From Microgenomates group bacterium (lineage in GTDB: Bacteria; Patescibacteriota; Microgenomatia; UBA12405), in NCBI GenBank assembly GCA_049303675.1, contig JBAQNJ010000001.1, forward strand, positions 408,711 to 472,710: a stretch of DNA of 64,000 nt, written 5' to 3'. The notes beneath the pieces were generated by a model. That model was not told where the DNA came from. It ran no database searches and saw only the letters and a list, made by a program, of their open reading frames with translations. A program made the translations under genes and the position numbers. Shown here piece by piece: positions 2,316 through 61,651 of this stretch (the first letter of the stretch is position 1; every line of letters starts with the position of its first letter).

Positions 2316-3230
2316 ATGAAAATATATCTGGTTGGACCAGAAAAAGAATATCTTTACTCAGTAGAAGAACTTAATAAAGTCGGTAACGTTGTTTATGTAA
2401 ATAATTTATCGGAAATATTTTCCGATCCAGACGATAAAATATTGGGTATTGCTCCAGGTGTTATTGATTGGAAATTTCCACTAGAAGATCTTAAGAAGAT
2501 TCAGAATTTAAAAGGTATCTGTACCAAGTCATCTTGGGGTTTTTATATTGATATCGAATATTGTCGCCAAAATAATATTCACGTATGCAATGTCCCAGGT
2601 GCCAACTCTCGCTCTGTTGCTGAGTATGCATTTTGGATGATGCTGTCTCTTGCCAGAAAATTACCCCAGCAAATCAGGGATAGTTTCCAAATCCATGAAT
2701 CTGACAATTTACATGTTGAAATAAGCGACAAAAAAATCGGTATTATTGGACTTGGTAAAGTTGGTGGTCATCTTGCCAAAATGGCGCAGGGTTTTGGTAT
2801 GGAAGTATGGTATTCAGGGCGCAGTCCCAAGAAAAATTCCTACAAGTATTCCCCAGTCGAAGATCTATTAAAAAATTGTGATTTTATTTTTGATTGTCTC
2901 GAAAATTGTCCTGAGACTCAAAACTATTTAAATAAAGACAGACTTAGTTTGATGAAATCATCTGCCTATTTCATAAGTGTTATGGGCGGCGCTGGTTGGG
3001 GAGTTGAAGATGACGAATTTTTAGTTCAAATGGTTCAAAACAATAAACTGGCTGGTTTTTCGATCGAGAATGAGCACAAAGGCAACTTTCCTAAGAAATT
3101 CGATGGCAATATTTTTATTCCCCCTGCATATGCTTGGAAAACTGTTGAGGCTCAAGATAGAACCAACAAAATATTTACCGAGACTATCGTCGGTCTTGCT
3201 ACTGGTAAAGTTATTAATGTAATTAAATAA
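2316..3230 (+). CDS. D-isomer-specific 2-hydroxyacid dehydrogenase family, NAD-binding
   Basis: KKIGIIGLGKVGGHLAKMAQGFGMEV Rossmann GxGxxG motif; 304 aa. Confidence 0.65.
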   Translation: MKIYLVGPEKEYLYSVEELNKVGNVVYVNNLSEIFSDPDDKILGIAPGVIDWKFPLEDLKKIQNLKGICTKSSWGFYIDIEYCRQNNIHVCNVPGANSRSVAEYAFWMMLSLARKLPQQIRDSFQIHESDNLHVEISDKKIGIIGLGKVGGHLAKMAQGFGMEVWYSGRSPKKNSYKYSPVEDLLKNCDFIFDCLENCPETQNYLNKDRLSLMKSSAYFISVMGGAGWGVEDDEFLVQMVQNNKLAGFSIENEHKGNFPKKFDGNIFIPPAYAWKTVEAQDRTNKIFTETIVGLATGKVINVIK

Positions 3231-3232
3231 AT

Positions 3233-4213
3233 ATGAAAATAAAAGTCACCGAACTCACCCAGCTTACCTTATCAGCTCTCAAAAAGTATGGCTATTCAGA
3301 TAATGAATCAGCCATAATTTCTAGAGTTCTATTATTCGCCCAACTCAGGGGCAACAATCAAGGTGTCGTCAAACTAATTGGCAAAGGCATACCTCGTCGA
3401 CCGGAGGGGCAAGCACCAATCAATATCAAAGACACCCCTGTTTCTGCCCTAATTGATGGCAATGCCACTCACGCGATTATTGTCATGGATCAGTTGGCAA
3501 ATATCGCCATCGATAAAGCCAAAAAATCAGGAATAGGACTAGTTGGTAGCTTTAATACTTCGGAGTCAACTGGCATTTTAGCCTATTATGTCGACAAAAT
3601 TGCTCGTGCTGGATTCATTGGTCTGGCATTTTCCTCTGCCCCATTCCAAACTACTGCCCCTTTTGGTTCCACCGAGGCTCGTTTTTGCACCAATCCTTTG
3701 GCCTATGGTGTCCCCACCAATTCGGATCCCATTCTATTTGATATGACCACTTCTGCTATGGCCTATTATGGACTGATAGAAGCGAAAACGGCCGGTAAAG
3801 ATGTCCCAGAAAACATAGGTTTTAATTCAGAAGGACAGCCAACTACCAACCCAGCCGAAATCATGGGTGGAGCGTTGCGAACAATAGCTGGACACAAAGG
3901 ATCAGGTCTTGCACTTCTAGTTCAAGTTCTTTGCGGACCTCTTGTTGGTGCCGATTCGTTTAACAGCAATAGTCACAATGCCGGTAATTTTGTTATCGCC
4001 ATCGATCCAAGTTTATTTACACCGACTGATGAATTCAAAAACAGAGTTGCCGATGTCGCCACTAAAATAAAATCAGCTCGAAAAATCAATGGAGTCGATG
4101 ATATATTGTTGCCAGGTGAACGCGGTACTCAATTACAAAAACAAAATATAGATAATGATGAGCTCGAAATTGGTGACAATCTATTAGCTGAGTTACAAAA
4201 AGTAGCTCCATAG
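3233..4213 (+). CDS. Ldh_2 family malate/L-lactate/sulfolactate dehydrogenase
   Basis: Ldh_2 family (AllD/ComC-like) signature including GHKGSGLALLVQVL; 326 aa. Confidence 0.6.
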   Translation: MKIKVTELTQLTLSALKKYGYSDNESAIISRVLLFAQLRGNNQGVVKLIGKGIPRRPEGQAPINIKDTPVSALIDGNATHAIIVMDQLANIAIDKAKKSGIGLVGSFNTSESTGILAYYVDKIARAGFIGLAFSSAPFQTTAPFGSTEARFCTNPLAYGVPTNSDPILFDMTTSAMAYYGLIEAKTAGKDVPENIGFNSEGQPTTNPAEIMGGALRTIAGHKGSGLALLVQVLCGPLVGADSFNSNSHNAGNFVIAIDPSLFTPTDEFKNRVADVATKIKSARKINGVDDILLPGERGTQLQKQNIDNDELEIGDNLLAELQKVAP

Positions 4214-4216
4214 TTC

Positions 4217-4600
4217 ATGAATATCATTCCCCAAAAAAAATCAATTCATGTAGACAAACCGGATGGTACCTCAGTTAATTATTATTTATTTCCTGAATAC
4301 GAAGTTCATTACAATGTAGTTGCCCCCCAGACTACTCAGCAATGGCATCACCATTTGAAAATTACCGAATCAATCCTAATTCTGGATGGTCAAATAGAGG
4401 TTCATTGGGTCGACGTGCATCAGCAAAAACAGCACCAGTTGGTCAAAGCAGGTGATCTGGTTGAAGTTGGCAACACTCCTCATACGTTTGTAAACAGCAG
4501 TAATTCCCCAGTCAAATTTGTCGTCTTTAGGTTTGTCCCGAGTGGCTACAACCAGCAAGAAGTCATCAAAAACGACAAGTTTCTTGATAATATTGACTAA
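4217..4600 (+). CDS. cupin domain protein
   Basis: HHHLKITESILILDGQ...VKAGDLVEV cupin beta-barrel motifs; 127 aa. Confidence 0.5.
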   Translation: MNIIPQKKSIHVDKPDGTSVNYYLFPEYEVHYNVVAPQTTQQWHHHLKITESILILDGQIEVHWVDVHQQKQHQLVKAGDLVEVGNTPHTFVNSSNSPVKFVVFRFVPSGYNQQEVIKNDKFLDNID

Positions 4601-4602
4601 TC

Positions 4603-5406
4603 ATGTTCAAAAATTTATTGATTATTTTTCTCGCCAGTGTCTGGATATCTTTATTAGTCCAATTAGTTCCCCAGCCCCAAGTTTTGGGAGTGACGACTGT
4701 CAACACACCTCCCGCCTCTGGCTATCGTCGCCAATTAGTTAGGACTGACAGTGGCAATTTTTATGTACGCATTATTGCCGCCGATACCAGTAATACTCGC
4801 ATTATCATCGATACTGCTTCTGGCTCAAATTGCGGCAATGATTGTCCGGTTTTATCACTCAAAGATTATGTCAAACGCAATGGTGCCATCGCTGGTATCA
4901 ATGGCGGTTACTTTTGCCCCGCCTCCTATCCAGCCTGTAGCAGCAAAAAAAATAGTTTTGATTTATTGCTGATGAATTCTAAGAAAACTTATTTCAATTC
5001 TGATAACAATATCTATAGTAATAATCCGGCTGTAATTTTTGGAGGTGGATATGTTCGTTTTGTACGCTCTGCCTCAGAGTGGGGGAGAGATACTGGTATC
5101 GACGGTATGATTTCCAATTATCCTCTTTTAGTTTTCAATCGCCAAAATGTTTACGGTGGTTCTGGTGACACCAAGTTGACATCTCGAGGCTCACGGGGTT
5201 TTGTGGCCAACAATGGCAACCGTGTCTATATAGGTATTGTTGAAAGAGCTACGGTAGCGCAGGCAGCCCAAGTCTTGACTACTCTTGGTGTCGACAACGC
5301 TATGAATCTCGACAGTGGCGGATCTACCGCTCTTTGGGCCAATAATGCGTATCGTGCCGGCCCAGGTCGTGCCATCCCCAATGCCATATTATTCGTAGCC
5401 CGTTGA
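4603..5406 (+). CDS. secreted phosphodiester glycosidase-like protein (NAGPA/DUF2233-like)
   Basis: N-terminal signal/TM segment; INGGYF and NLDSGGSTALW motifs. Confidence 0.45.
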   Translation: MFKNLLIIFLASVWISLLVQLVPQPQVLGVTTVNTPPASGYRRQLVRTDSGNFYVRIIAADTSNTRIIIDTASGSNCGNDCPVLSLKDYVKRNGAIAGINGGYFCPASYPACSSKKNSFDLLLMNSKKTYFNSDNNIYSNNPAVIFGGGYVRFVRSASEWGRDTGIDGMISNYPLLVFNRQNVYGGSGDTKLTSRGSRGFVANNGNRVYIGIVERATVAQAAQVLTTLGVDNAMNLDSGGSTALWANNAYRAGPGRAIPNAILFVAR

Positions 5407-5783: not shown

Positions 5784-6599
5784 TTGGCTGTGTTTACCCA
5801 TCCTGATATAAAAAGTTTTGAGCCAACTCCATATGAATATCCCCGAGGATATTTTGATATCCAATATCAGTTTGCCCAAGAGGTTGTCAGAATAGGTATC
5901 ACTCCTGATATACCGACTGCAGTTGCCAAATATACCTCAATTCCCCGACGCCTTTTTGGTAAAGATTATGTATTGCCTAGCAATTGGCCGGACTTATGTC
6001 ACAGTTCAACTGTCATCTGGAATACATATACTAAGGAAAATGCTCACTTTTTTGTTTCTCCGGAACCAATAAATGATGGCTGTCATCACGGAAGTTTTAT
6101 CTACAAACCATACCCCGATACTGATCTGATAATTGATCGGCCGACAGGGCTACAAAAAATGGAGTTACATTTCAACAATCACCGTGGTCACGTTGGTGAG
6201 TATTCTAGATCCAACTTATCAACACTGACTACCAATCTCTCAGACTTATTTCAGTCAGTTGCCGATCGTAAAAAAGCTGATCCAAATTTTCGACCAGAAG
6301 TCGTTACGCTAGGTTCTTGGATGAACAACTTTACTGGAATCCAGCAGGCATTACCTTCCGAGTTTGTTGACAGTTCTGTAGTAGTTCGTCCACCAAATCT
6401 CTCATTCGCTGGTGACTCTTTGTGGGGACAATTTCTTACCAACAATGCTGGAATTAATAAGCAATATTATCAACATTTTTCCGAAAAAATTGCAACTGCC
6501 GCGGATATTAATGATTTAGTCGATGCCTTTCCTATGCCAGTACTTTTTTCTCGATCTATTATTAAGCCATTTTTTGATAAGTATCAAACTAAGTTATAA
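5784..6599 (+). CDS. hypothetical protein
   Basis: 271-aa ORF, no recognisable motif. Confidence 0.4.
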   Translation: MAVFTHPDIKSFEPTPYEYPRGYFDIQYQFAQEVVRIGITPDIPTAVAKYTSIPRRLFGKDYVLPSNWPDLCHSSTVIWNTYTKENAHFFVSPEPINDGCHHGSFIYKPYPDTDLIIDRPTGLQKMELHFNNHRGHVGEYSRSNLSTLTTNLSDLFQSVADRKKADPNFRPEVVTLGSWMNNFTGIQQALPSEFVDSSVVVRPPNLSFAGDSLWGQFLTNNAGINKQYYQHFSEKIATAADINDLVDAFPMPVLFSRSIIKPFFDKYQTKL

Positions 6600-6605
6600 T
6601 CAAGC

Positions 6606-7328
6606 ATGAAAGATAAAGTCGTAATTGTCACCGGTGCTAGTCAAGGTCTCGGTAAAGAATTATCTTTGCAATTAGTCGCACTTGGCGCCAAGGTAGCTCT
6701 AGTATCTCGTAACGAAAAATTATTAATAGAATTAAAAGAAAAAATTAATAGTAATGGGGGAGTCGCTGAATATTTTATCTGTGACGTTACTGACTTTAAT
6801 CAAGTAAATTCTACAGTAGAAAAAATATTAAAATCTTTTGGTAAAATCGATATTTTAATTAACAACGCCGGTCTCTGGTTACCCGATCAAGTTGCCGCCA
6901 CTGATCAATCTCGAATCGAAAAAATATTTAAAGTTAATTCTCTTGGTCCAATTTATTTTTCTCAAGCAGTAATGTCCCTGTTTGATTCTCAACAAACAGG
7001 CCATCTATTATTTATCAATTCTATCGGTGGATTAAATTATCCAATTATCAAAGATTGGCAAATATACTCTGCCACCAAATGGGCCATTACCGGATATGCC
7101 AAATCGTTAAGTTACAAATACGACAATACTCCAATCAAGGTCACTTCAATTTATCCTGGTCCATTTTCTAGTAACATTGACAAAAATGCTGGTGATGATT
7201 TTGGTGCCGATCGTAGTTTTGAAACACCAGTCGCTGATTTGGCCGAGCAAATAGTCCATGTTTTAAATACTCCGAAAAAACTAATGGTTGATACTCTAGA
7301 ATTAAAAAATACTAACTGGAATTCATAA
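6606..7328 (+). CDS. short-chain dehydrogenase/reductase (SDR)
   Basis: VTGASQGLGKEL (TGxxxGxG) and YSATKWA (YxxxK) motifs. Confidence 0.8.
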   Translation: MKDKVVIVTGASQGLGKELSLQLVALGAKVALVSRNEKLLIELKEKINSNGGVAEYFICDVTDFNQVNSTVEKILKSFGKIDILINNAGLWLPDQVAATDQSRIEKIFKVNSLGPIYFSQAVMSLFDSQQTGHLLFINSIGGLNYPIIKDWQIYSATKWAITGYAKSLSYKYDNTPIKVTSIYPGPFSSNIDKNAGDDFGADRSFETPVADLAEQIVHVLNTPKKLMVDTLELKNTNWNS

Positions 7329-10324: not shown

Positions 10325-10353
10325 AAAAAACCCGTCTTTCGACGGGTTTTTTT
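10325..10353. terminator. bidirectional rho-independent terminator
   Basis: AAAAAACCCGTC-TTTC-GACGGGTTTTTTT between convergent greA and the RRM gene. Confidence 0.8.
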
Positions 10354-15482: not shown

Positions 15483-16166
15483 ATGCCATTAATTAGACTC
15501 AATAAATACTTGTCTTCACTCGGAGTAGCCTCGCGCCGCAAAATCGACGAATTTACTATCCAAAAAAGAATTACCATCAACAGCCGTACTGCCGTTCTTG
15601 GAGACAAAGTCGATCCAGAAGTCGACAAAGTTATCGTCGACAAAAAAATTATCAATCCACAGCCGCGCAAACTTGTCTATTATTTACTCAACAAACCAAA
15701 ATATGTTCTCTCTAGTTCTTCCGACGATCGCGGCCGCGATGTTGTTACCAACTATGTTCCCCGCGACATTCGCGTTTTTCCTGTTGGTCGACTCGATTAC
15801 GAATCGACCGGACTAATTTTACTGACCAACGATGGTGACCTATCTCTTCGCCTGACTCACCCTCGCTATCATTTACCCAAAGTTTACTTGGTGACTATTT
15901 TAGGCAAAATTACTCCCCAAAAACTCAAGTCGATGAATGATCCCAGTACCGAAACCGAAATTTACGACCAAAAGTCCAACAAAACTATTTTAAAAGTTAC
16001 CCTGTATACTGGCAAAAAGCGTCAAATTAGATTACTCTGCGCCTCACTTCACCTCTTTTTATTGGAGTTGCACCGTATCAGTATTGGTCCAATTAATATC
16101 AACAATTTAGCTCTCGGCGCTTACCGAGAGCTAAAAGTTAGTGAATTAAAAACTATCCGACTTTAA
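15483..16166 (+). CDS. pseudouridine synthase, RsuA/RluB family
   Basis: N-terminal S4 domain (LNKYLSSLGVASRRK) plus catalytic VGRLDYESTGLILLTNDGDL. Confidence 0.85.
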   Translation: MPLIRLNKYLSSLGVASRRKIDEFTIQKRITINSRTAVLGDKVDPEVDKVIVDKKIINPQPRKLVYYLLNKPKYVLSSSSDDRGRDVVTNYVPRDIRVFPVGRLDYESTGLILLTNDGDLSLRLTHPRYHLPKVYLVTILGKITPQKLKSMNDPSTETEIYDQKSNKTILKVTLYTGKKRQIRLLCASLHLFLLELHRISIGPININNLALGAYRELKVSELKTIRL

Positions 16167-21771: not shown

Positions 21772-22980
21772 ATGTCCAACCAGCCACTAGCCTCACATCT
21801 ACGTCCCAAAAGTTTAGCCGATTTTGTCGGCCAATCTCATCTAGTTGGCGAGGGCAAGCCTCTCCGTCTGGCCATCGACAACCATCAAATATTTTCCATG
21901 ATCTTTTGGGGGCCACCAGGGGTAGGCAAGACAACTTTAGCCAAAATTATTGCTCACGAAGCCCAAGCAGAGCTATACGAAATGTCCGCAGTCTCTGCCT
22001 CTAAAGATGATATAAAAAAAATTCTTGGTAATTCTGTAGAGACGCGCCATGGCACGTCTCTACCCTTAATAAAAAAAATATTATTTCTCGACGAAATCCA
22101 CCGCTTCAACAAAGCTCAGCAAGATTTTCTACTACCCTACGTCGAGTCAGGTCAATTGACTCTGATCGGTGCCACTACTGAAAATCCTAGTTTTGAGGTT
22201 ATTTCCCCACTTCTTTCCCGCTGTCGTGTCTTTACACTAAAAGAACTTTCTGATACTGAAATTGGACAAATTATTGACAGAACTGCCTCGATTCTTTCAC
22301 CCCTTGTTAAAGGGGGGACTAAAGGGGGGATTGGTAAACGTGCAAAAGATTGGCTAATCAGTATGGCCAATGGTGATGCTCGGCAGGCTATCACTATGAT
22401 TGACAATGCATTTACTCTTTATCAAAAAATCACCATTGATACCTTAAAGTCCACCTTACAAAATTCTTTTCTTCGTTTTGACAAGCAGGGCTCCGAGCAT
22501 TACGACACTATTTCCGCTTTTATCAAAAGTATGCGAGCATCAAATATCGATGCCGCCCTCTATTATTTGGCTCGGATGGTCGAGGCAGGGGAGGACCCCA
22601 AATTTATCGCTAGGCGGATGGTTATTTTTGCCTCCGAGGATATTGGCATGGCCAACTCCAATGCTCTGCTTTTGGCCAATCAGGTGTTTCAAGCCGTCAC
22701 TCAAATCGGCTATCCCGAGTGTGCTATCAGTTTGGCCCATGGAGTGGCATATTTAGCCTCGTCTGCTAAGAATCGATCCGCCTATGACGCACTCCGATCA
22801 GCCCAAGCCGATATCAAAACTTACGGCAATCTCCCTATCCCTCTCAATCTTCGCAACGCGGAGACTTCCCTGATGAAGGAGCTGGGTTACGGCAAGGGCT
22901 ATCAAAAATATACTACCGAATCTTTATTGCCTGACAAGATTAAAAACAAAAAATACTTTAAAAATTTAAAGAAAAAATGA
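21772..22980 (+). CDS. rarA: recombination factor RarA/MgsA (AAA+ ATPase)
   Basis: FVGQSHLVGEGKPLRL...FWGPPGVGKTTLAKIIA Walker A, followed by the MgsA C-terminal domain. Confidence 0.9.
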   Translation: MSNQPLASHLRPKSLADFVGQSHLVGEGKPLRLAIDNHQIFSMIFWGPPGVGKTTLAKIIAHEAQAELYEMSAVSASKDDIKKILGNSVETRHGTSLPLIKKILFLDEIHRFNKAQQDFLLPYVESGQLTLIGATTENPSFEVISPLLSRCRVFTLKELSDTEIGQIIDRTASILSPLVKGGTKGGIGKRAKDWLISMANGDARQAITMIDNAFTLYQKITIDTLKSTLQNSFLRFDKQGSEHYDTISAFIKSMRASNIDAALYYLARMVEAGEDPKFIARRMVIFASEDIGMANSNALLLANQVFQAVTQIGYPECAISLAHGVAYLASSAKNRSAYDALRSAQADIKTYGNLPIPLNLRNAETSLMKELGYGKGYQKYTTESLLPDKIKNKKYFKNLKKK

Positions 22981-39909: not shown

Positions 39910-40743
39910 GTGGCTACAAAAGATAATTCAGTAATAATTTTTCAAAACAACAAGGTTCGTCGAATTTGGGATGAACAAAAAGAGCTATGGTATTTTTCAG
40001 TTGTCGACATTATTGAAATTTTGACTGGGAGTACAAATCCTCAAGTTTACTGGCGTGTCTTGAAAAAGAGACTAATCGATGAGGGATCAAATGAAACCGT
40101 TACAAATTGTAACGGTTTGAAAATGCTCGCAAGTGATGGCAAAATGAGAATTACTGATGTAGCTGATACCCAAAATATGTTTCGAATTATTCAATCAATC
40201 CCGTCTCCAAAAGCCGAACCATTAAAATTATGGCTGGCCAAGGTCGGATATCAACGATTAGAAGAAATTGAGGACCCTGAATTAGCCATCAATCGTGCAT
40301 TACAAAACTTTCTAAAAAAAGGATATTCAAAAGAGTGGATAAATCAAAGGTTAAAAACAATTGAAGTTAGAAAAGAACTAACAGACGAATGGCAGTCACG
40401 AGGAGTTGAAGAAGGTTTAGAATTTGCAATTTTAACAAATGAAATAACCAAAGCATGGTCAGGCAAAACTGTTCGCGAGTATAAAAATTTCAAAAATCTA
40501 AAAAAAGAAAATTTACGAGATAATATGACCAATTTAGAATTGGTCATAAATACACTTGCCGAAGCAACAACCACTGAAATTTCCAAAGATAGAAAACCTA
40601 AAACACTTAATGAAAGTAAACAAATCGCCAACCGCGGTGGACAAATAGCTGGTAACGCCAGAAAGGAAATAGAATTAGAAACGGGCAAGAAAATAGTTTC
40701 TCCCAAAAACGCAAAAAACACAAAAAATGCTCTGTTATCTTGA
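39910..40743 (+). CDS. DinD-like DNA-damage-inducible protein with N-terminal Bro-N domain
   Basis: N-terminus IFQNNKVRRIWDEQKELWYFSVVDIIEILT is a Bro-N/antirepressor-like fold. The C-terminal part (LRDNMTNLELVINTLAEATTTEISKDRKPKTLNESKQIANRGGQIAGNARKEIELETGKKIVSP) resembles E. coli DinD. It is a paralogue of the fragment at 22977. Confidence 0.55.
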   Translation: MATKDNSVIIFQNNKVRRIWDEQKELWYFSVVDIIEILTGSTNPQVYWRVLKKRLIDEGSNETVTNCNGLKMLASDGKMRITDVADTQNMFRIIQSIPSPKAEPLKLWLAKVGYQRLEEIEDPELAINRALQNFLKKGYSKEWINQRLKTIEVRKELTDEWQSRGVEEGLEFAILTNEITKAWSGKTVREYKNFKNLKKENLRDNMTNLELVINTLAEATTTEISKDRKPKTLNESKQIANRGGQIAGNARKEIELETGKKIVSPKNAKNTKNALLS

Positions 40744-57917: not shown

Positions 57918-58967
57918 ATGATTACTCGAATACTTTATGACGAGGAAAAGCTAGCCTACAACAAGCTGGTCAAGCACCCTATCCAAACGTGGGAATGGGG
58001 TGATTTTCAGAAGAAAGAGGGTCATCGAGTCTATCGTCTTGGTGTATTCGAAAATGACAAATTGATTTCTGCCTACAGTGTTAGTTTTCATGGTATTCCT
58101 CACACCAAATATTCTATCGGTACAATTTTGCGCGGACCAGCTATTGATATCGAAATGATCAACAACATCCGCAAAATTGCCCTCGACGAAAACGCCATCT
58201 TTGTCAAATTTGAGCCAGATGTCTATCAAAAAACTTTTGACCTCAACAATCAACCGACAACTGTCAACGAGCTCCCTCATTTTAATGATCTTCATGTCTC
58301 TCCCAAGGTGGCCTTTTATCCTTATTCTTATGTAATTGATTTGTCTCAGACCGAAGACGAGCTCTTAGCTGCCATGCATAGCAAAACACGTTACAATATC
58401 AAAATTGCCAATCGTCACGGAGTGAAAGTGGAGGAGGTCAATACCGCTGCTGGCTTTGCCAAATATTTAGAATTATTGTTTGATACCACCAAGAGGCAGG
58501 GATTCTATCTCCATTCTCACAATTATCACCGTACCCAATGGGAAATACTTCAGAAAACCAAAATCCCTCACATTATGCTCGCCTCCTATCAAGGCAAGGT
58601 GCTCTCTGCCTTCATGCTATTTACACTCGGCAAAAAACTATTTTATCCCTATGGCGCTTCACTCGATATCCATCGGGAAGTCATGGCCCCCACCCTTCTG
58701 ATGTGGGAATGTATCAAGTTTGGTAAGCAAATGGGTCTCAAAACTTTTGACATGTGGGGCAGTCTCGGCCCCGATGCTCGCGAGTCCGATCAAGGCTATG
58801 GTTTTCATCGCTTCAAACAAAGTTATGGCGGTCAGCTAGTTCAATTTATCGGCACTTATGATCTAGTTATTTCACCCAAACTTTATCAACTCTACAATCT
58901 AGTTGACAAATATCGCTGGAAACTATTGCGCCTTCGCGCCGATATAATTGGCAGATTTAAATCATAA
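57918..58967 (+). CDS. FemAB-family aminoacyl-tRNA-dependent peptidyltransferase-like protein
   Basis: 349 aa with two GNAT-like halves: LRGPAID...FVKFEP and SYQGKVLSAFMLFTLGK...YPYGAS pattern of FemX/MurM. Confidence 0.55.
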   Translation: MITRILYDEEKLAYNKLVKHPIQTWEWGDFQKKEGHRVYRLGVFENDKLISAYSVSFHGIPHTKYSIGTILRGPAIDIEMINNIRKIALDENAIFVKFEPDVYQKTFDLNNQPTTVNELPHFNDLHVSPKVAFYPYSYVIDLSQTEDELLAAMHSKTRYNIKIANRHGVKVEEVNTAAGFAKYLELLFDTTKRQGFYLHSHNYHRTQWEILQKTKIPHIMLASYQGKVLSAFMLFTLGKKLFYPYGASLDIHREVMAPTLLMWECIKFGKQMGLKTFDMWGSLGPDARESDQGYGFHRFKQSYGGQLVQFIGTYDLVISPKLYQLYNLVDKYRWKLLRLRADIIGRFKS

Positions 58968-59210
58968 TTCAATTAGGTCAAGTCTTAGAGTACCACTGTA
59001 TGGTTTATCAAGTATCGCATTTTCTGCTTCTAATACCGTTATTACCCTTGCACTAGATATTAGTGCAAAGTTCCTATCTCGACTTTCACCATCAATTACC
59101 CAACGATGAAGGGCTTTTTTCCTATCGTCTTCAAAATATGCGATTAGTTTATCTCTATTTGTTATCAATTGTTCATCAGCCATGCCAGATAATATCATAA
59201 AACAATTCAT
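58962..59210 (-). CDS. hypothetical small protein
   Basis: 82-aa ORF. Confidence 0.3.
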   Translation of the reverse strand: MNCFMILSGMADEQLITNRDKLIAYFEDDRKKALHRWVIDGESRDRNFALISSARVITVLEAENAILDKPYSGTLRLDLIEL

Positions 59211-59230
59211 AATCCGAGTATTATTTACCT

Positions 59231-59817
59231 ATGCCATGGATTAATTATCCATTTAAATTTGAAAAACGGTACCGTCGGGTGGTTGGGATTATTCCAATAA
59301 TGGATATTATTTTATAACAATTTGTACCAAGGATAGGGTGAATTATTTTGGTGAAATTGTTAATAACAAAATGTATTTATCTGAAATTGGTGATCTGGTT
59401 AGTAAATATTGGTGCGAAATACCACATCATTTTAATGATATTAGAATTGATAAATACGTCGTTATGCCAAATCATTTTCATGGAATATTAATCGTAAACA
59501 AAACCAACAATAATGTAGGAACGCATTATAATGCGTTCCTACCAACAGGAATAAAAAACAATGTTGATTTACAACAACCGGCCGTTAACGCTAAATATAG
59601 AGATTTGGCGAATAAATCAATCCAAACAATTCCCTTGGCAATCAAATTATTTAAAAGATCTGTTAAAAAATATGCCAACCAAAACAATATCACCTTTGCC
59701 TGGCAACCCCGATTTCATGATCGGATTATCAGATCAGAAAAAGAATATTGGGCAAAACGAATTTATATTGAGAACAATCCCGAAAATTGGGGGAAAGATA
59801 TTGAACATCTTATGTAG
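59231..59817 (+). mobile_element. IS200-like / REP-associated tyrosine transposase (RAYT, HUH-Y1) gene, frameshifted, carrying a palindrome insertion
   Basis: ATG at 59231 (MPWINYPFKFEKRY, frame 2), then frame 1 from about 59263: GGWDYSNNGYYFITICTKDRVNYFGEIV (RAYT N-terminal signature), VMPNHFHGIL (HuH) and YIENNP (catalytic Tyr). The frameshift lies near 59265-59275. Confidence 0.7.
59515..59542. repeat. 28-bp perfect palindrome GTAGGAACGCATTATAATGCGTTCCTAC (REP-like), copy inside the RAYT coding sequence
   Basis: Identical to 59814-59841. Encodes VGTHYNAFLP within the transposase. Confidence 0.85.
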
Positions 59818-59841
59818 GAACGCATTATAATGCGTTCCTAC
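59814..59841. repeat. 28-bp perfect palindrome GTAGGAACGCATTATAATGCGTTCCTAC overlapping the RAYT stop codon
   Basis: Exact second copy, 299 bp downstream of the first. Confidence 0.85.
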
Positions 59842-59925
59842 ATGAATAAATAATCAAACCTTAATAATCTTCAACATAAAAATTCAAACCATAACATTCA
59901 ATTATTTATTAGGTTAAAATACCCT

Positions 59926-60228
59926 ATGTCCTCAATCATTACCGATGATGTTATTACAAAAGTAGCGAAGTTGGCCAGAATCAACATTCCTACCAAAAAA
60001 GTCAGTTTATTTGCCAGTCAACTTGAGCCAATATTAGAACATTTTGAGTCCTTATCAAAAGTTGACACCAAAAATGTTATCCCTACCTATCAAACCACTG
60101 GTTTAAATACCACTCTCCGTAATGATGACATTGATACAAATCGTATGTTAACCCAAAAACAGGCAACATCAAACGCACCAAAATCACAAGATGGCTATTT
60201 TGTTACTTCCGCCACTATTCACAAATAA
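59926..60228 (+). CDS. gatC: Asp-tRNA(Asn)/Glu-tRNA(Gln) amidotransferase subunit C
   Basis: 100 aa, VAKLARINIP...LEPILEHFESL GatC pattern, immediately upstream of gatA. Confidence 0.8.
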   Translation: MSSIITDDVITKVAKLARINIPTKKVSLFASQLEPILEHFESLSKVDTKNVIPTYQTTGLNTTLRNDDIDTNRMLTQKQATSNAPKSQDGYFVTSATIHK

Positions 60229-60229
60229 T

Positions 60230-61651
60230 ATGTTACTAGACAAATCAATTTCCGAATTAGCCTCAGGTCTACGTGCCAGCGAGTTTACCTCAGTCCATTT
60301 GATCAATGAATGCTATGACAATATTGAAAAATATAACTCAAAGGTCAATGCTTTTATAACTATAATTCCTCGTCAGACTGCATTATCAAACGCAAAATCC
60401 ATTAAATTTACCTCTCCCCTATCCGGCATTCCTTTTGTTCTCAAAGACTGTTTTGTCACCGAAGGGATAAGAACTACTGCTGCCTCAAAAGTATTAGAAA
60501 ATTTTATTCCACCCTACAGTGCCACAATTTACAAAAAACTAATTGATGCCGGGGCGATATTAATTGGCAAAATGAATATGGATGCTTGGGGACATGGTGG
60601 ATCATCGGAAAATACAGACTTTGGCCCAGTCAAAAATCCTTGGGATTTATCTCGTGTGGCTGGCGGTTCCGGCGGAGGTCCAGCGGTTGCTATCGCCACT
60701 CGTATGGCAGTTTTTGCCATCGGCGAAGACACCGGCGGTTCAATTCGTAATCCTGCCGGATGGACTAACACCACTGGTTTAAAAGTAACCTATGGCCGAG
60801 TTTCTCGTTATGGCGCCATTGCTTATGCTTCATCTTTTGACACTGTCGGTCCGGTAGCCAAAACTGTCGATGATTGTGCCATTGTTCTGGAAACAATCGC
60901 TGGTGTTGATCCCTACGACGCCACCTCCTCACCACATCCAGTTCCCAGTTATTCAAAATTGCTAAATAAAAATTTGTCAGAAGTAACTGTCGGTATTCCC
61001 CAAGAATTTTATGGTGAGGGGATTGATCTAGAAATAAAAGAGGCTGTCCTAAAAGTTTCGACTGATTTGCAAAAAGCTGGTGCCAAAATCAAAGAAATTT
61101 CTATGCCACTTTTTGACCTATGTTTACCGGTATATTATTTAATTGGACCCAGTGAAACTTCTTCCAATTTAGCCCGATATGATGGCATCCGTTATGGTCA
61201 GGATCGACAAAATTTTACTGACGAAACCATTCGCCGAATCTTAATTGGAACTTATGCCCTGTCTGCCGGTTACTACGATGCCTACTACAAAAAAGCCCAG
61301 CAGGTTCGGACTCTTTTTATCGAAGAATACAAAAAAGCCCTTGATCAGTGTGATATTTTGCTTCAGCCAATAATGCCTGCTCGTCCACCAAAATTTGGTG
61401 AGTTACTTTCCGATCCACTCCAAAATTTATTAGCCGATATTTATACTGTTTCCCAAAATCCTGTCGGTGTCCCCTCTCTAGCTCTTCCCTGTGGATTTAC
61501 CAAATCAGGATTACCCATTGGCGCCCAAATTGTCGGCAAAATGTTTTCCGAAGAATTGCTACTTAGTATCGGTCATGAGTATCAAAAATTAACAAATCAT
61601 CATTTAAAGTCTCCCTTGTTAAAGGGAGATTTAGAGGGATTGAAATTATGA
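60230..61651 (+). CDS. gatA: Asp-tRNA(Asn)/Glu-tRNA(Gln) amidotransferase subunit A (amidase signature)
   Basis: Amidase signature region GGSSGGSAAAVA-like (AGGSGGGPAVAIA) and Ser-cisSer-Lys residues. Track ORF starts at 60191; the ATG at 60230 follows the gatC stop. Confidence 0.9.
   Translation: MLLDKSISELASGLRASEFTSVHLINECYDNIEKYNSKVNAFITIIPRQTALSNAKSIKFTSPLSGIPFVLKDCFVTEGIRTTAASKVLENFIPPYSATIYKKLIDAGAILIGKMNMDAWGHGGSSENTDFGPVKNPWDLSRVAGGSGGGPAVAIATRMAVFAIGEDTGGSIRNPAGWTNTTGLKVTYGRVSRYGAIAYASSFDTVGPVAKTVDDCAIVLETIAGVDPYDATSSPHPVPSYSKLLNKNLSEVTVGIPQEFYGEGIDLEIKEAVLKVSTDLQKAGAKIKEISMPLFDLCLPVYYLIGPSETSSNLARYDGIRYGQDRQNFTDETIRRILIGTYALSAGYYDAYYKKAQQVRTLFIEEYKKALDQCDILLQPIMPARPPKFGELLSDPLQNLLADIYTVSQNPVGVPSLALPCGFTKSGLPIGAQIVGKMFSEELLLSIGHEYQKLTNHHLKSPLLKGDLEGLKL

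Follow-up and report, generated by a model that had tools for sequence, protein, structure and literature searches.

A probable subclass 2.4 REPtron with an in-frame REP and a one-nucleotide lesion in a Microgenomates genome

Introduction

How does the gene of a presumed mobilising enzyme come to carry, in the middle of its own coding sequence, a palindrome of the kind that such enzymes act on? The question is raised by a locus in the 64-kb window (the whole stretch of DNA analysed here), where a sequence-only reading had seen a frameshifted RAYT gene with two identical palindromes, and had proposed that the inner one is a REP that inserted itself into the gene and may have helped to inactivate it. 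The TnpA-Y1 family was split into subclasses by Quentin, Siguier, Chandler & Fichant 2018 (BMC Genomics 19:475, PMC6006769), and subclass 2.4 of that scheme corresponds to Bertels group 4. Its members have the motifs NH[IFV]H, WQ and YIxNNP and a median length of 194 aa (PMC6006769, Table 1), together with a median HuH-Y distance of 88 aa and an insert between beta3 and alphaC that is enlarged and varies strongly (PMC6006769). The REPs of subclass 2.4 are of the ‘double foot’ type, with a 5' GT[AG]G and a 3' C[TC]AC, and occur in frame within tnpA-REP; in the structural model of Quentin et al. these in-gene REPs fall in a peripheral extension, and the published view of them is one of neutral tolerance (PMC6006769). 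The 16-mers that flank group 4 genes are of modest abundance only, at ~14 occurrences per replicon, and the group evolves slowly and congruently with housekeeping genes (Bertels et al. 2017, PMC5581495). More generally, TAG stop codons are often provided by the ends of GTAG REPs, and REPs that lie inside genes are found preferentially in those for replication and repair (Di Nocera et al. 2013, PMC3733652). Cleavage and joining of REPs in single-stranded DNA have been shown only for the E. coli enzyme of subclass 2.2 (PMC6006769, PMC3733652), in which the W-motif region is the region that recognises GTAG (PMC6006769).

Here, we argue that the locus is a REPtron of TnpA-Y1 subclass 2.4 (RAYT group 4) with a tolerated in-gene REP and an unrelated 1-nt lesion, a reading to which we assign a probability of roughly 85%. 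The in-gene REP is already a published trait of subclass 2.4, and what is new is a pseudogenised member from Microgenomates. To this we add the joint change of internal and 3' REPs, the absence of the GTAG foot from one codon phase and the occurrence of the same REP in a DNA-ligase gene.

Gene architecture and frameshift

The long frame of the gene holds, in this order, GGWDYSNNGYYFITICT, MPNHFHGIL, VGTHYNAFLP, WQPRFHD, YIENNP and HLM, and its stop codon is the TAG in the GTAG of the 3' palindrome (Table 1). The repaired protein has 195 aa, with 97 aa from the HuH histidine to the tyrosine, and H71 and H73 of the HuH motif are invariant in both homologue alignments (A1 and A3). As assembled, the gene opens in another frame. 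The frame that starts at the ATG at 59231 (... CGT CG) closes at a TAA at 59315-59317; intact homologues start MKWVNYPFKMEKQYRREGWDYS, and tblastn with the repaired protein places residues 1-16 at 59231-59278. A DNA alignment against two intact homologues gives a lone 1-nt gap between 59277 and 59278 (CGTCG-GGTGG in the window, CGTCGTGAGGG in the homologues). The frameshift of the sequence-only reading is hence present in the assembly, although it follows 16 codons, not 11, and lies at 59277-59279 rather than near 59270. The deletion is the sole lesion in the gene and is located 237 bp upstream of the internal REP, and the Logan assembly of run SRR28062879 matches the window at every base over 58842-59841 and has the deletion as well. 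In the NCBI annotation just 159 codons remain, from a GTG at 59338, and the product would miss the conserved first strand (YYFITICT), given that this GTG lies downstream of it. Judged by its sequence, the gene as assembled is inactivated by a 1-nt deletion that is unrelated to the internal REP.

Table 1. Positions of the features of the RAYT gene and its REPs, in window coordinates
Feature	Position	Strand	Remarks
RAYT gene, 5' part, 16 codons (MPWINYPFKFEKRYRR)	59231..59278	+	frame 1; translation; aligns with MKWVNYPFKMEKQYRR of intact P0002
G run with 1-nt deletion	59277..59279	+	DNA alignment: window CGTCG-GGTGGTTGGGAT, L002 CGTCGTGAGGGCTGGGAT
Remaining RAYT frame, GGWDYS...DIEHLM, then stop	59278..59817	+	frame 3
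HuH motif NHFH	59470..59481	+	translation; aligns with HuH of E. coli TnpA-REP 4er8
Internal ‘double foot’ REP, GTAG...CTAC	59515..59542	+	in frame, phase 0, encodes VGTHYNAFL
WQPRFHD motif	59701..59721	+	W motif of class 2 TnpA-Y1; aligns with 4er8
Catalytic tyrosine motif YIENNP	59764..59781	+	fits the subclass 2.4 signature YIxNNP; aligns with 4er8
3' REP, 28-mer 59814-59841 extended by AT/AT to a 32-bp palindrome	59812..59843	+	its TAG, 59815-59817, is the stop codon

Programmed frameshifting, in the form of a -1 slip on GAAAAAC (59261-59267) that would restore the length, was also considered. It was dropped because the frame-1 codons past GAAAAAC still encode the conserved (K/Q)YR(R/L), of which Y and R are near-invariant in alignment A3, and because the DNA alignment gives a simple 1-nt gap at 59277/59278.

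Protein family and fold

A Pfam scan of the protein gives no match at E <= 0.1, PF01797 Y1_Tnp included. The NCBIfam equivalog model NF047646 REP_Tyr_transpos scores 53.3 bits, below its cut-off of 80, and P0006, tested against the curated models (NF047646/PF01797), reaches 18 bits at a cut-off of 23. An annotation of the gene as an equivalog of the E. coli-type enzyme is not warranted. A search of a large protein collection returned 2815 relatives, several of which are labelled RayT or transposase by their sources. When a profile of 119 homologues was compared with the PDB, the sole match was E. coli TnpA-REP (4er8, E = 5.5e-8), via the HuH and the WQPRF...YI..NP regions. The AlphaFold AF2 model (pLDDT 82, pTM 0.75) leads to the same family, in that each of the 30 Foldseek matches with E <= 0.001 is an IS200/IS605 or REP Y1 transposase, and among these 30 it is 4er8_A that has the best query-normalised TM-score (0.51; TM 0.51/0.57) and the lowest rmsd (4.4 A). 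The earlier assignment to a RAYT-type Y1 HUH enzyme, made from the HuH and Tyr motifs, is thus borne out by NHFH, YIENNP and the match of profile and fold to REP transposases.

All sequence signatures of subclass 2.4 that were looked for are found at this locus, namely NHFH, WQ, YIENNP, a length of ~194 aa, a variable insert, a double-foot REP and a REP in frame. In the model VGTHYNAFL comprises residues 85-93 of 184 and sits in a loop with pLDDT<50 directly behind the HuH strand; the model has low confidence over residues 79-121, which align with length-variable columns. There is one copy of the gene in the 64-kb window, and a tblastn-type search with the repaired protein returned no second RAYT there, such as might be the source of the GTAGAGACG-type REP at 22036 described below.

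Palindromes of the locus

The 28-bp perfect palindrome GTAGGAACGCATTATAATGCGTTCCTAC has exactly two copies in the 64 kb. As had been read from the sequence, they lie over the stop codon and 299 bp upstream within the ORF (Table 1). Folded as single-stranded DNA, the two copies reach -12.9 and -15.1 kcal/mol (z = -7.9 and -9.0). They have the traits of a GTAG-type REP, with the GTAG foot at the base of a stem of 12-14 bp, and the double foot is seen as GTAGGAACGC...GCGTTCCTAC at 59814-59841. A chimeric assembly is an unlikely source of the internal palindrome, which recurs in metagenome assemblies that are independent of each other.

A terminator/promoter scan found no T run after the 3' REP on the + strand, with counts not above those of shuffled sequence, and the idea that this REP is a canonical terminator of the RAYT gene was dropped for the lack of a T run behind it on that strand. 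The Logan contig L001 breaks exactly at the final base of the 3' palindrome (window 59841), which fits a genomic repeat or a break of the de Bruijn graph at a self-complementary k-mer.

REPs in close and distant homologues

The same palindrome is found at the same place in intact relatives. L002, which encodes an intact 199-aa homologue with 79% identity, has three exact copies of the 28-mer. The first ends up 25 nt before the ATG and has no counterpart in the window, the second is in frame at the internal site known from the window, and the third lies over the stop in another phase, where the TAA of the loop is the stop codon. L003 (77% identity) and L091 (55%), both intact, have the exact 28-mer inside the gene at the in-frame position of the window, and L003 is devoid of a 3' copy. 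In L089 (59% identity) the palindrome is TGTAGGAACGCATCATGATGCGTTCCTACA, with TCATGA for TTATAA, a symmetric two-base change after which the palindrome is still perfect. L093 (54% identity) has a REP with different central 12 bases, GTAGGAACATGCCGCGGCATGTTCCTAC, both inside the gene (phase 1) and at the stop, where TAG is the stop codon. The gene order of L093 is that of the window (DUF2298, UvrD, FemAB, RAYT, GatC, GatA, GatB), and the FemAB-RAYT-GatC synteny is kept at 77% identity in L003 and at 54% in L093, which suggests that the RAYT gene is a fixed chromosomal resident of this lineage; P0004 and P0005 are in other contexts. By comparison of the syntenic orthologues, the internal and 3' REPs have changed together. 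A codon-identity test of whether the REP is constrained at the DNA level gave P = 0.056, 0.037 and 0.009 per pair, for pairs that are not independent, and is just marginal because codon usage is strongly biased.

The loop around the internal REP also varies in other ways. At 4301-4362 of L093, the left arm of the internal REP and its 5' flank (TTCTATCGGTAGGAACATG...) are tandemly duplicated with a 30-bp period within the coding loop, and in P0007 (Shapirobacteria) the unit SIGRNMTMAD occurs four times in tandem, from which it follows that the REP-bearing loop also grows by tandem duplication. At the position of the 5' REP, L003 has a different palindrome (3958-3977, GTACATGCCATGGCATGTAC) with a core like that of the L093 REP, ACATGCCGCGGCATGT, and this may be a decayed REP of the L093 variant.

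To cover more distant relatives, one genome per species was scanned, which gave at least 80 homologues of 35-44% identity among the matches listed. The listed homologues are from the candidate phyla radiation, Bacteroidota, Cyanobacteria, Gammaproteobacteria, Chlorobi/Ignavibacteria, Chloroflexi and others. In 61 of the 80 listed homologues the gene contains a perfect stem of 9 bp or more, which is missing in the other 19. Most of the in-gene hairpins in these 61 are of the form GTAG[AG]GAC...GTC[TC]CTAC at nucleotides 225-350, and of the 53 hairpins whose position could be assigned in the listed homologues, 48 are between the HuH and WQ motifs. Across the listed loci, there are 1.68 hairpins per kb in the genes, 2.43 in the 200-bp flanks and 0.19 beyond 700 bp, and both feet are present in 37 of 70 hairpins. 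Counted by the codon position of its G, the GTAG foot falls in phase 0 in 30 cases among the listed loci, in phase 1 in 12 and in phase 2 in none. Phase 2 would give an in-frame TAG, and it is the phase that the 3' REP of the window uses to terminate. In 16 of 31 listed loci, internal and flank hairpins have 10 nt or more of an arm in common, compared with 8.6% of cross-locus pairings, and the internal arm recurs more than 700 bp away in just 4 of the 80. In the homologue of L057, from a Marinifilaceae assembly, the match at 6001-6776 has internal stops and two copies of GGACACGACATGTCGTGTCC that are 422 bp apart; possibly this is a further subclass 2.4 gene that has been disrupted or expanded.

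REPs away from RAYT genes

A scan of the JGI metagenome collection found the exact 28-mer in two other contigs, L087 and L088; the scan missed the L002 contig, which bears the 28-mer, so that two contigs are no measure of abundance. In L087 the exact 28-mer (4281-4308) is in frame in a 660-aa NAD-dependent DNA-ligase-like ORF (2899-4881, minus strand), and it again encodes VGTHYNAFLP because the palindrome is identical on both strands. In L088 it is intergenic, beside two GTAGAGACG-type palindromes. The window itself has a second double-foot GTAG palindrome at 22036-22063, GTAGAGACGCGCCATGGCACGTCTCTAC, which has an imperfect centre and lies in an ORF at 21772-22980 (+). This ORF is the MgsA/RarA AAA+ ATPase gene (mgsA), in which the REP is in frame and encodes VETRHGTSLP between the Walker A and Walker B regions. 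The GTAGAGACG-type REP found at 22036 is present not only in L088 but also in L093.

Taken as a GTAG-footed REP, the palindrome has gained ground, given its presence in the ligase ORF of L087 and the intergenic DNA of L088. A search for further copies in the window came back empty even at <=3 mismatches (0 expected by chance), and the exact copies are in those two contigs instead. The notion of an accident that aided inactivation does not hold, as the internal REP is in frame, falls in a loop of very low pLDDT, is present as the identical 28-mer in the intact genes of L002, L003 and L091, has in-gene counterparts in 61 of the 80 listed distant homologues, and is well separated from the sole lesion. 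Alignment with intact homologues, which served to locate the frameshift, shows that the segment taken for an insertion is native and at the same place in the intact genes; since it is palindromic there as well, the identification as a REP stands.

Discussion

As we read it, the locus would comprise a single-copy, vertically inherited Y1 HUH gene and copies of its cognate double-foot REP (GTAG foot, stem, CTAC foot), of which one is placed in frame in what is probably a hypervariable loop at the surface, after the HuH strand and before the next helix, and a second over the end of the gene, where it would give the TAG stop. By analogy to E. coli TnpA-REP, an intact enzyme would bind the REP hairpin in single-stranded DNA. 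The GTAG foot would then be read via the WQ...R region, and the tyrosine of YIENNP would cut and rejoin the DNA, as in the E. coli subclass 2.2 enzyme; such activity may spread or homogenise REPs. The internal REP would be a tolerated, long-standing and subclass-wide feature, kept compatible with the frame in that its GTAG never takes the phase that gives TAG, and its identity to the flank REP would be due to conversion or re-insertion, or else to selection that acts on the substrate.

The lesion leaves room for another account, that the gene is intact and the missing base in the GGG run at 59277-59279 is an error of sequencing or consensus, which would make this an active subclass 2.4 REPtron. 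We regard this as rather unlikely. In its favour, there is a single lesion only, with the catalytic motifs and the entire remaining frame intact, that lesion is in a homopolymer run, and orthologues at the same chromosomal site are intact. On the other hand, the NCBI genome assembly and the Logan assembly agree in sequence, and a 3-base run is not a typical site of Illumina errors; the same reads are possibly behind both assemblies, and the deletion may still stem from a sequencing error at the G run. A different matter is whether the internal REP is tolerated or selected. As a cis element it might serve autoregulation, as a ‘master copy’ of the substrate within the gene of the enzyme, for example a site at which the enzyme binds the ssDNA or mRNA of its own gene. 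Alternatively it might form a self-targeting switch with the 3' hairpin, in which the enzyme would cut at both hairpins and excise or restore the 299-bp segment that encodes the tyrosine. If true, a cis role would account for the retention of the REP across the clade and for the joint change of internal and flanking REPs, and it draws on the prevalence and fixed position of the hairpin across phyla among the listed homologues, on the identity of the 28-mer across genes of 55-79% identity and on the joint change of both copies in the syntenic orthologue L093. We nevertheless consider it unlikely. The loop is hypervariable in length and sequence, with tandem duplications, and the perfect internal hairpin is absent from 19 of the 80 listed homologues; L003 lacks the 3' copy and the window the 5' copy. 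The in-frame REPs in the ligase ORF of L087 and in mgsA at 22036 moreover fit opportunistic insertion into permissive loops, and neutral tolerance is the published view (PMC6006769).

Two further explanations find little room beside the preferred REPtron. That the locus is an autonomous insertion sequence of the IS200/IS605 type, with the palindromes as the hairpins of its left and right ends, is very improbable. The Y1 HUH fold is common to the transposases of IS608 and ISDra2 and the hairpins are near the ends of the gene, but the tyrosine motif is the YIENNP of class 2 and not the Y---Q of IS200, there is one copy in 64 kb, and relatives down to 54% identity have the gene at the same site between FemAB and GatC. 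The hairpins, too, are identical perfect palindromes rather than distinct imperfect ends, and tnpB is absent. We give hardly any credence to the proposal that VGTHYNAFL is selected as a peptide and the palindromic DNA is incidental to it. The peptide is conserved in P0002, P0003 and P0005; however, the GTAG...CTAC palindromes of distant homologues differ from it, are read in two phases and encode unrelated peptides (VETLHATSL, RNMPRHVP), the same DNA is intergenic in L088 and lies at the stop codon, and the loop is predicted to be disordered.

Of the known systems, subclass 2.4 REPtrons (RAYT group 4) share with the locus NH[IFV]H, WQ, YIxNNP, ~194 aa, the variable insert behind HuH, double-foot REPs and probably a low copy number. 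Quentin et al. 2018 list Cyanobacteria, Bacteroidetes and ‘various phyla’ for subclass 2.4, whereas the host here is one of the Microgenomates (candidate phyla radiation), and in contrast to a typical subclass 2.4 REPtron the copy in the window is frameshifted, has no 5' REP and is accompanied by just two gene-associated REPs in 64 kb. E. coli TnpA-REP (subclass 2.2, 4ER8) with its REP/BIME elements has in common the Y1 HUH fold, a GTAG-footed hairpin, WQPRF...YI..NP and a domesticated gene, probably single-copy here too, flanked by REPs, but it differs in its DHLH and YIHYNP motifs, in bulged, imperfect, single-foot REPs that number hundreds of copies, and in the absence of an in-gene REP; the identity is only ~17% over the structural alignment. 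Intragenic GTAG/CGTC REPs and the Rickettsia palindromic elements (Di Nocera et al. 2013; Ogata et al.) are likewise in-frame palindromes in protein loops and provide TAG stops, and the bias of intragenic REPs to replication and repair genes is matched by mgsA/rarA in the window and the DNA ligase in L087. In contrast to both of these, the host gene here is that of the presumed mobilising enzyme, and the insertion is clade-wide and not sporadic. The IS200/IS605 elements (IS608, ISDra2) share the HUH/Y1 catalytic core and the recognition of hairpins in single-stranded DNA; none of their own features is found here, that is, autonomy, multiple copies, distinct subterminal imperfect hairpins, Y---Q and, often, tnpB.

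On its own, a known family trait in a degraded copy is of little importance. It does show that the in-gene REP trait reaches genomes of ~1 Mb in the candidate phyla radiation, and it holds a lesson for annotation, in that VGTHYNAFL, VETLHATSL and RNMPRHVP in genes called ‘hypothetical’ or ‘transposase’ are translated REPs. The orthologous loci of the window, L003 and L093 form a natural series in which homogenisation by the enzyme can be set against selection on the REPs.

Other features of the window

A tRNA scan of the 64-kb window found none, and an Rfam scan of 58500-60500 gave a chance-level match only. The spacer between FemAB and RAYT is occupied by an antisense ORF of 82 aa (58962-59210, minus strand), which overlaps the FemAB stop by 6 nt, has no Pfam match and is a predicted gene in the Logan contig; the same spacer holds the 5' REP in L002, and at this position L003 and L093 have a spacer of 19-74 bp only. 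Three strong perfect hairpins that are unrelated to REPs are located at 10325-10352, 16106-16135 and 40094-40118 of the window, and one of them, AAAAAACCCGTCTTTCGACGGGTTTTTT, resembles a bidirectional intrinsic terminator.
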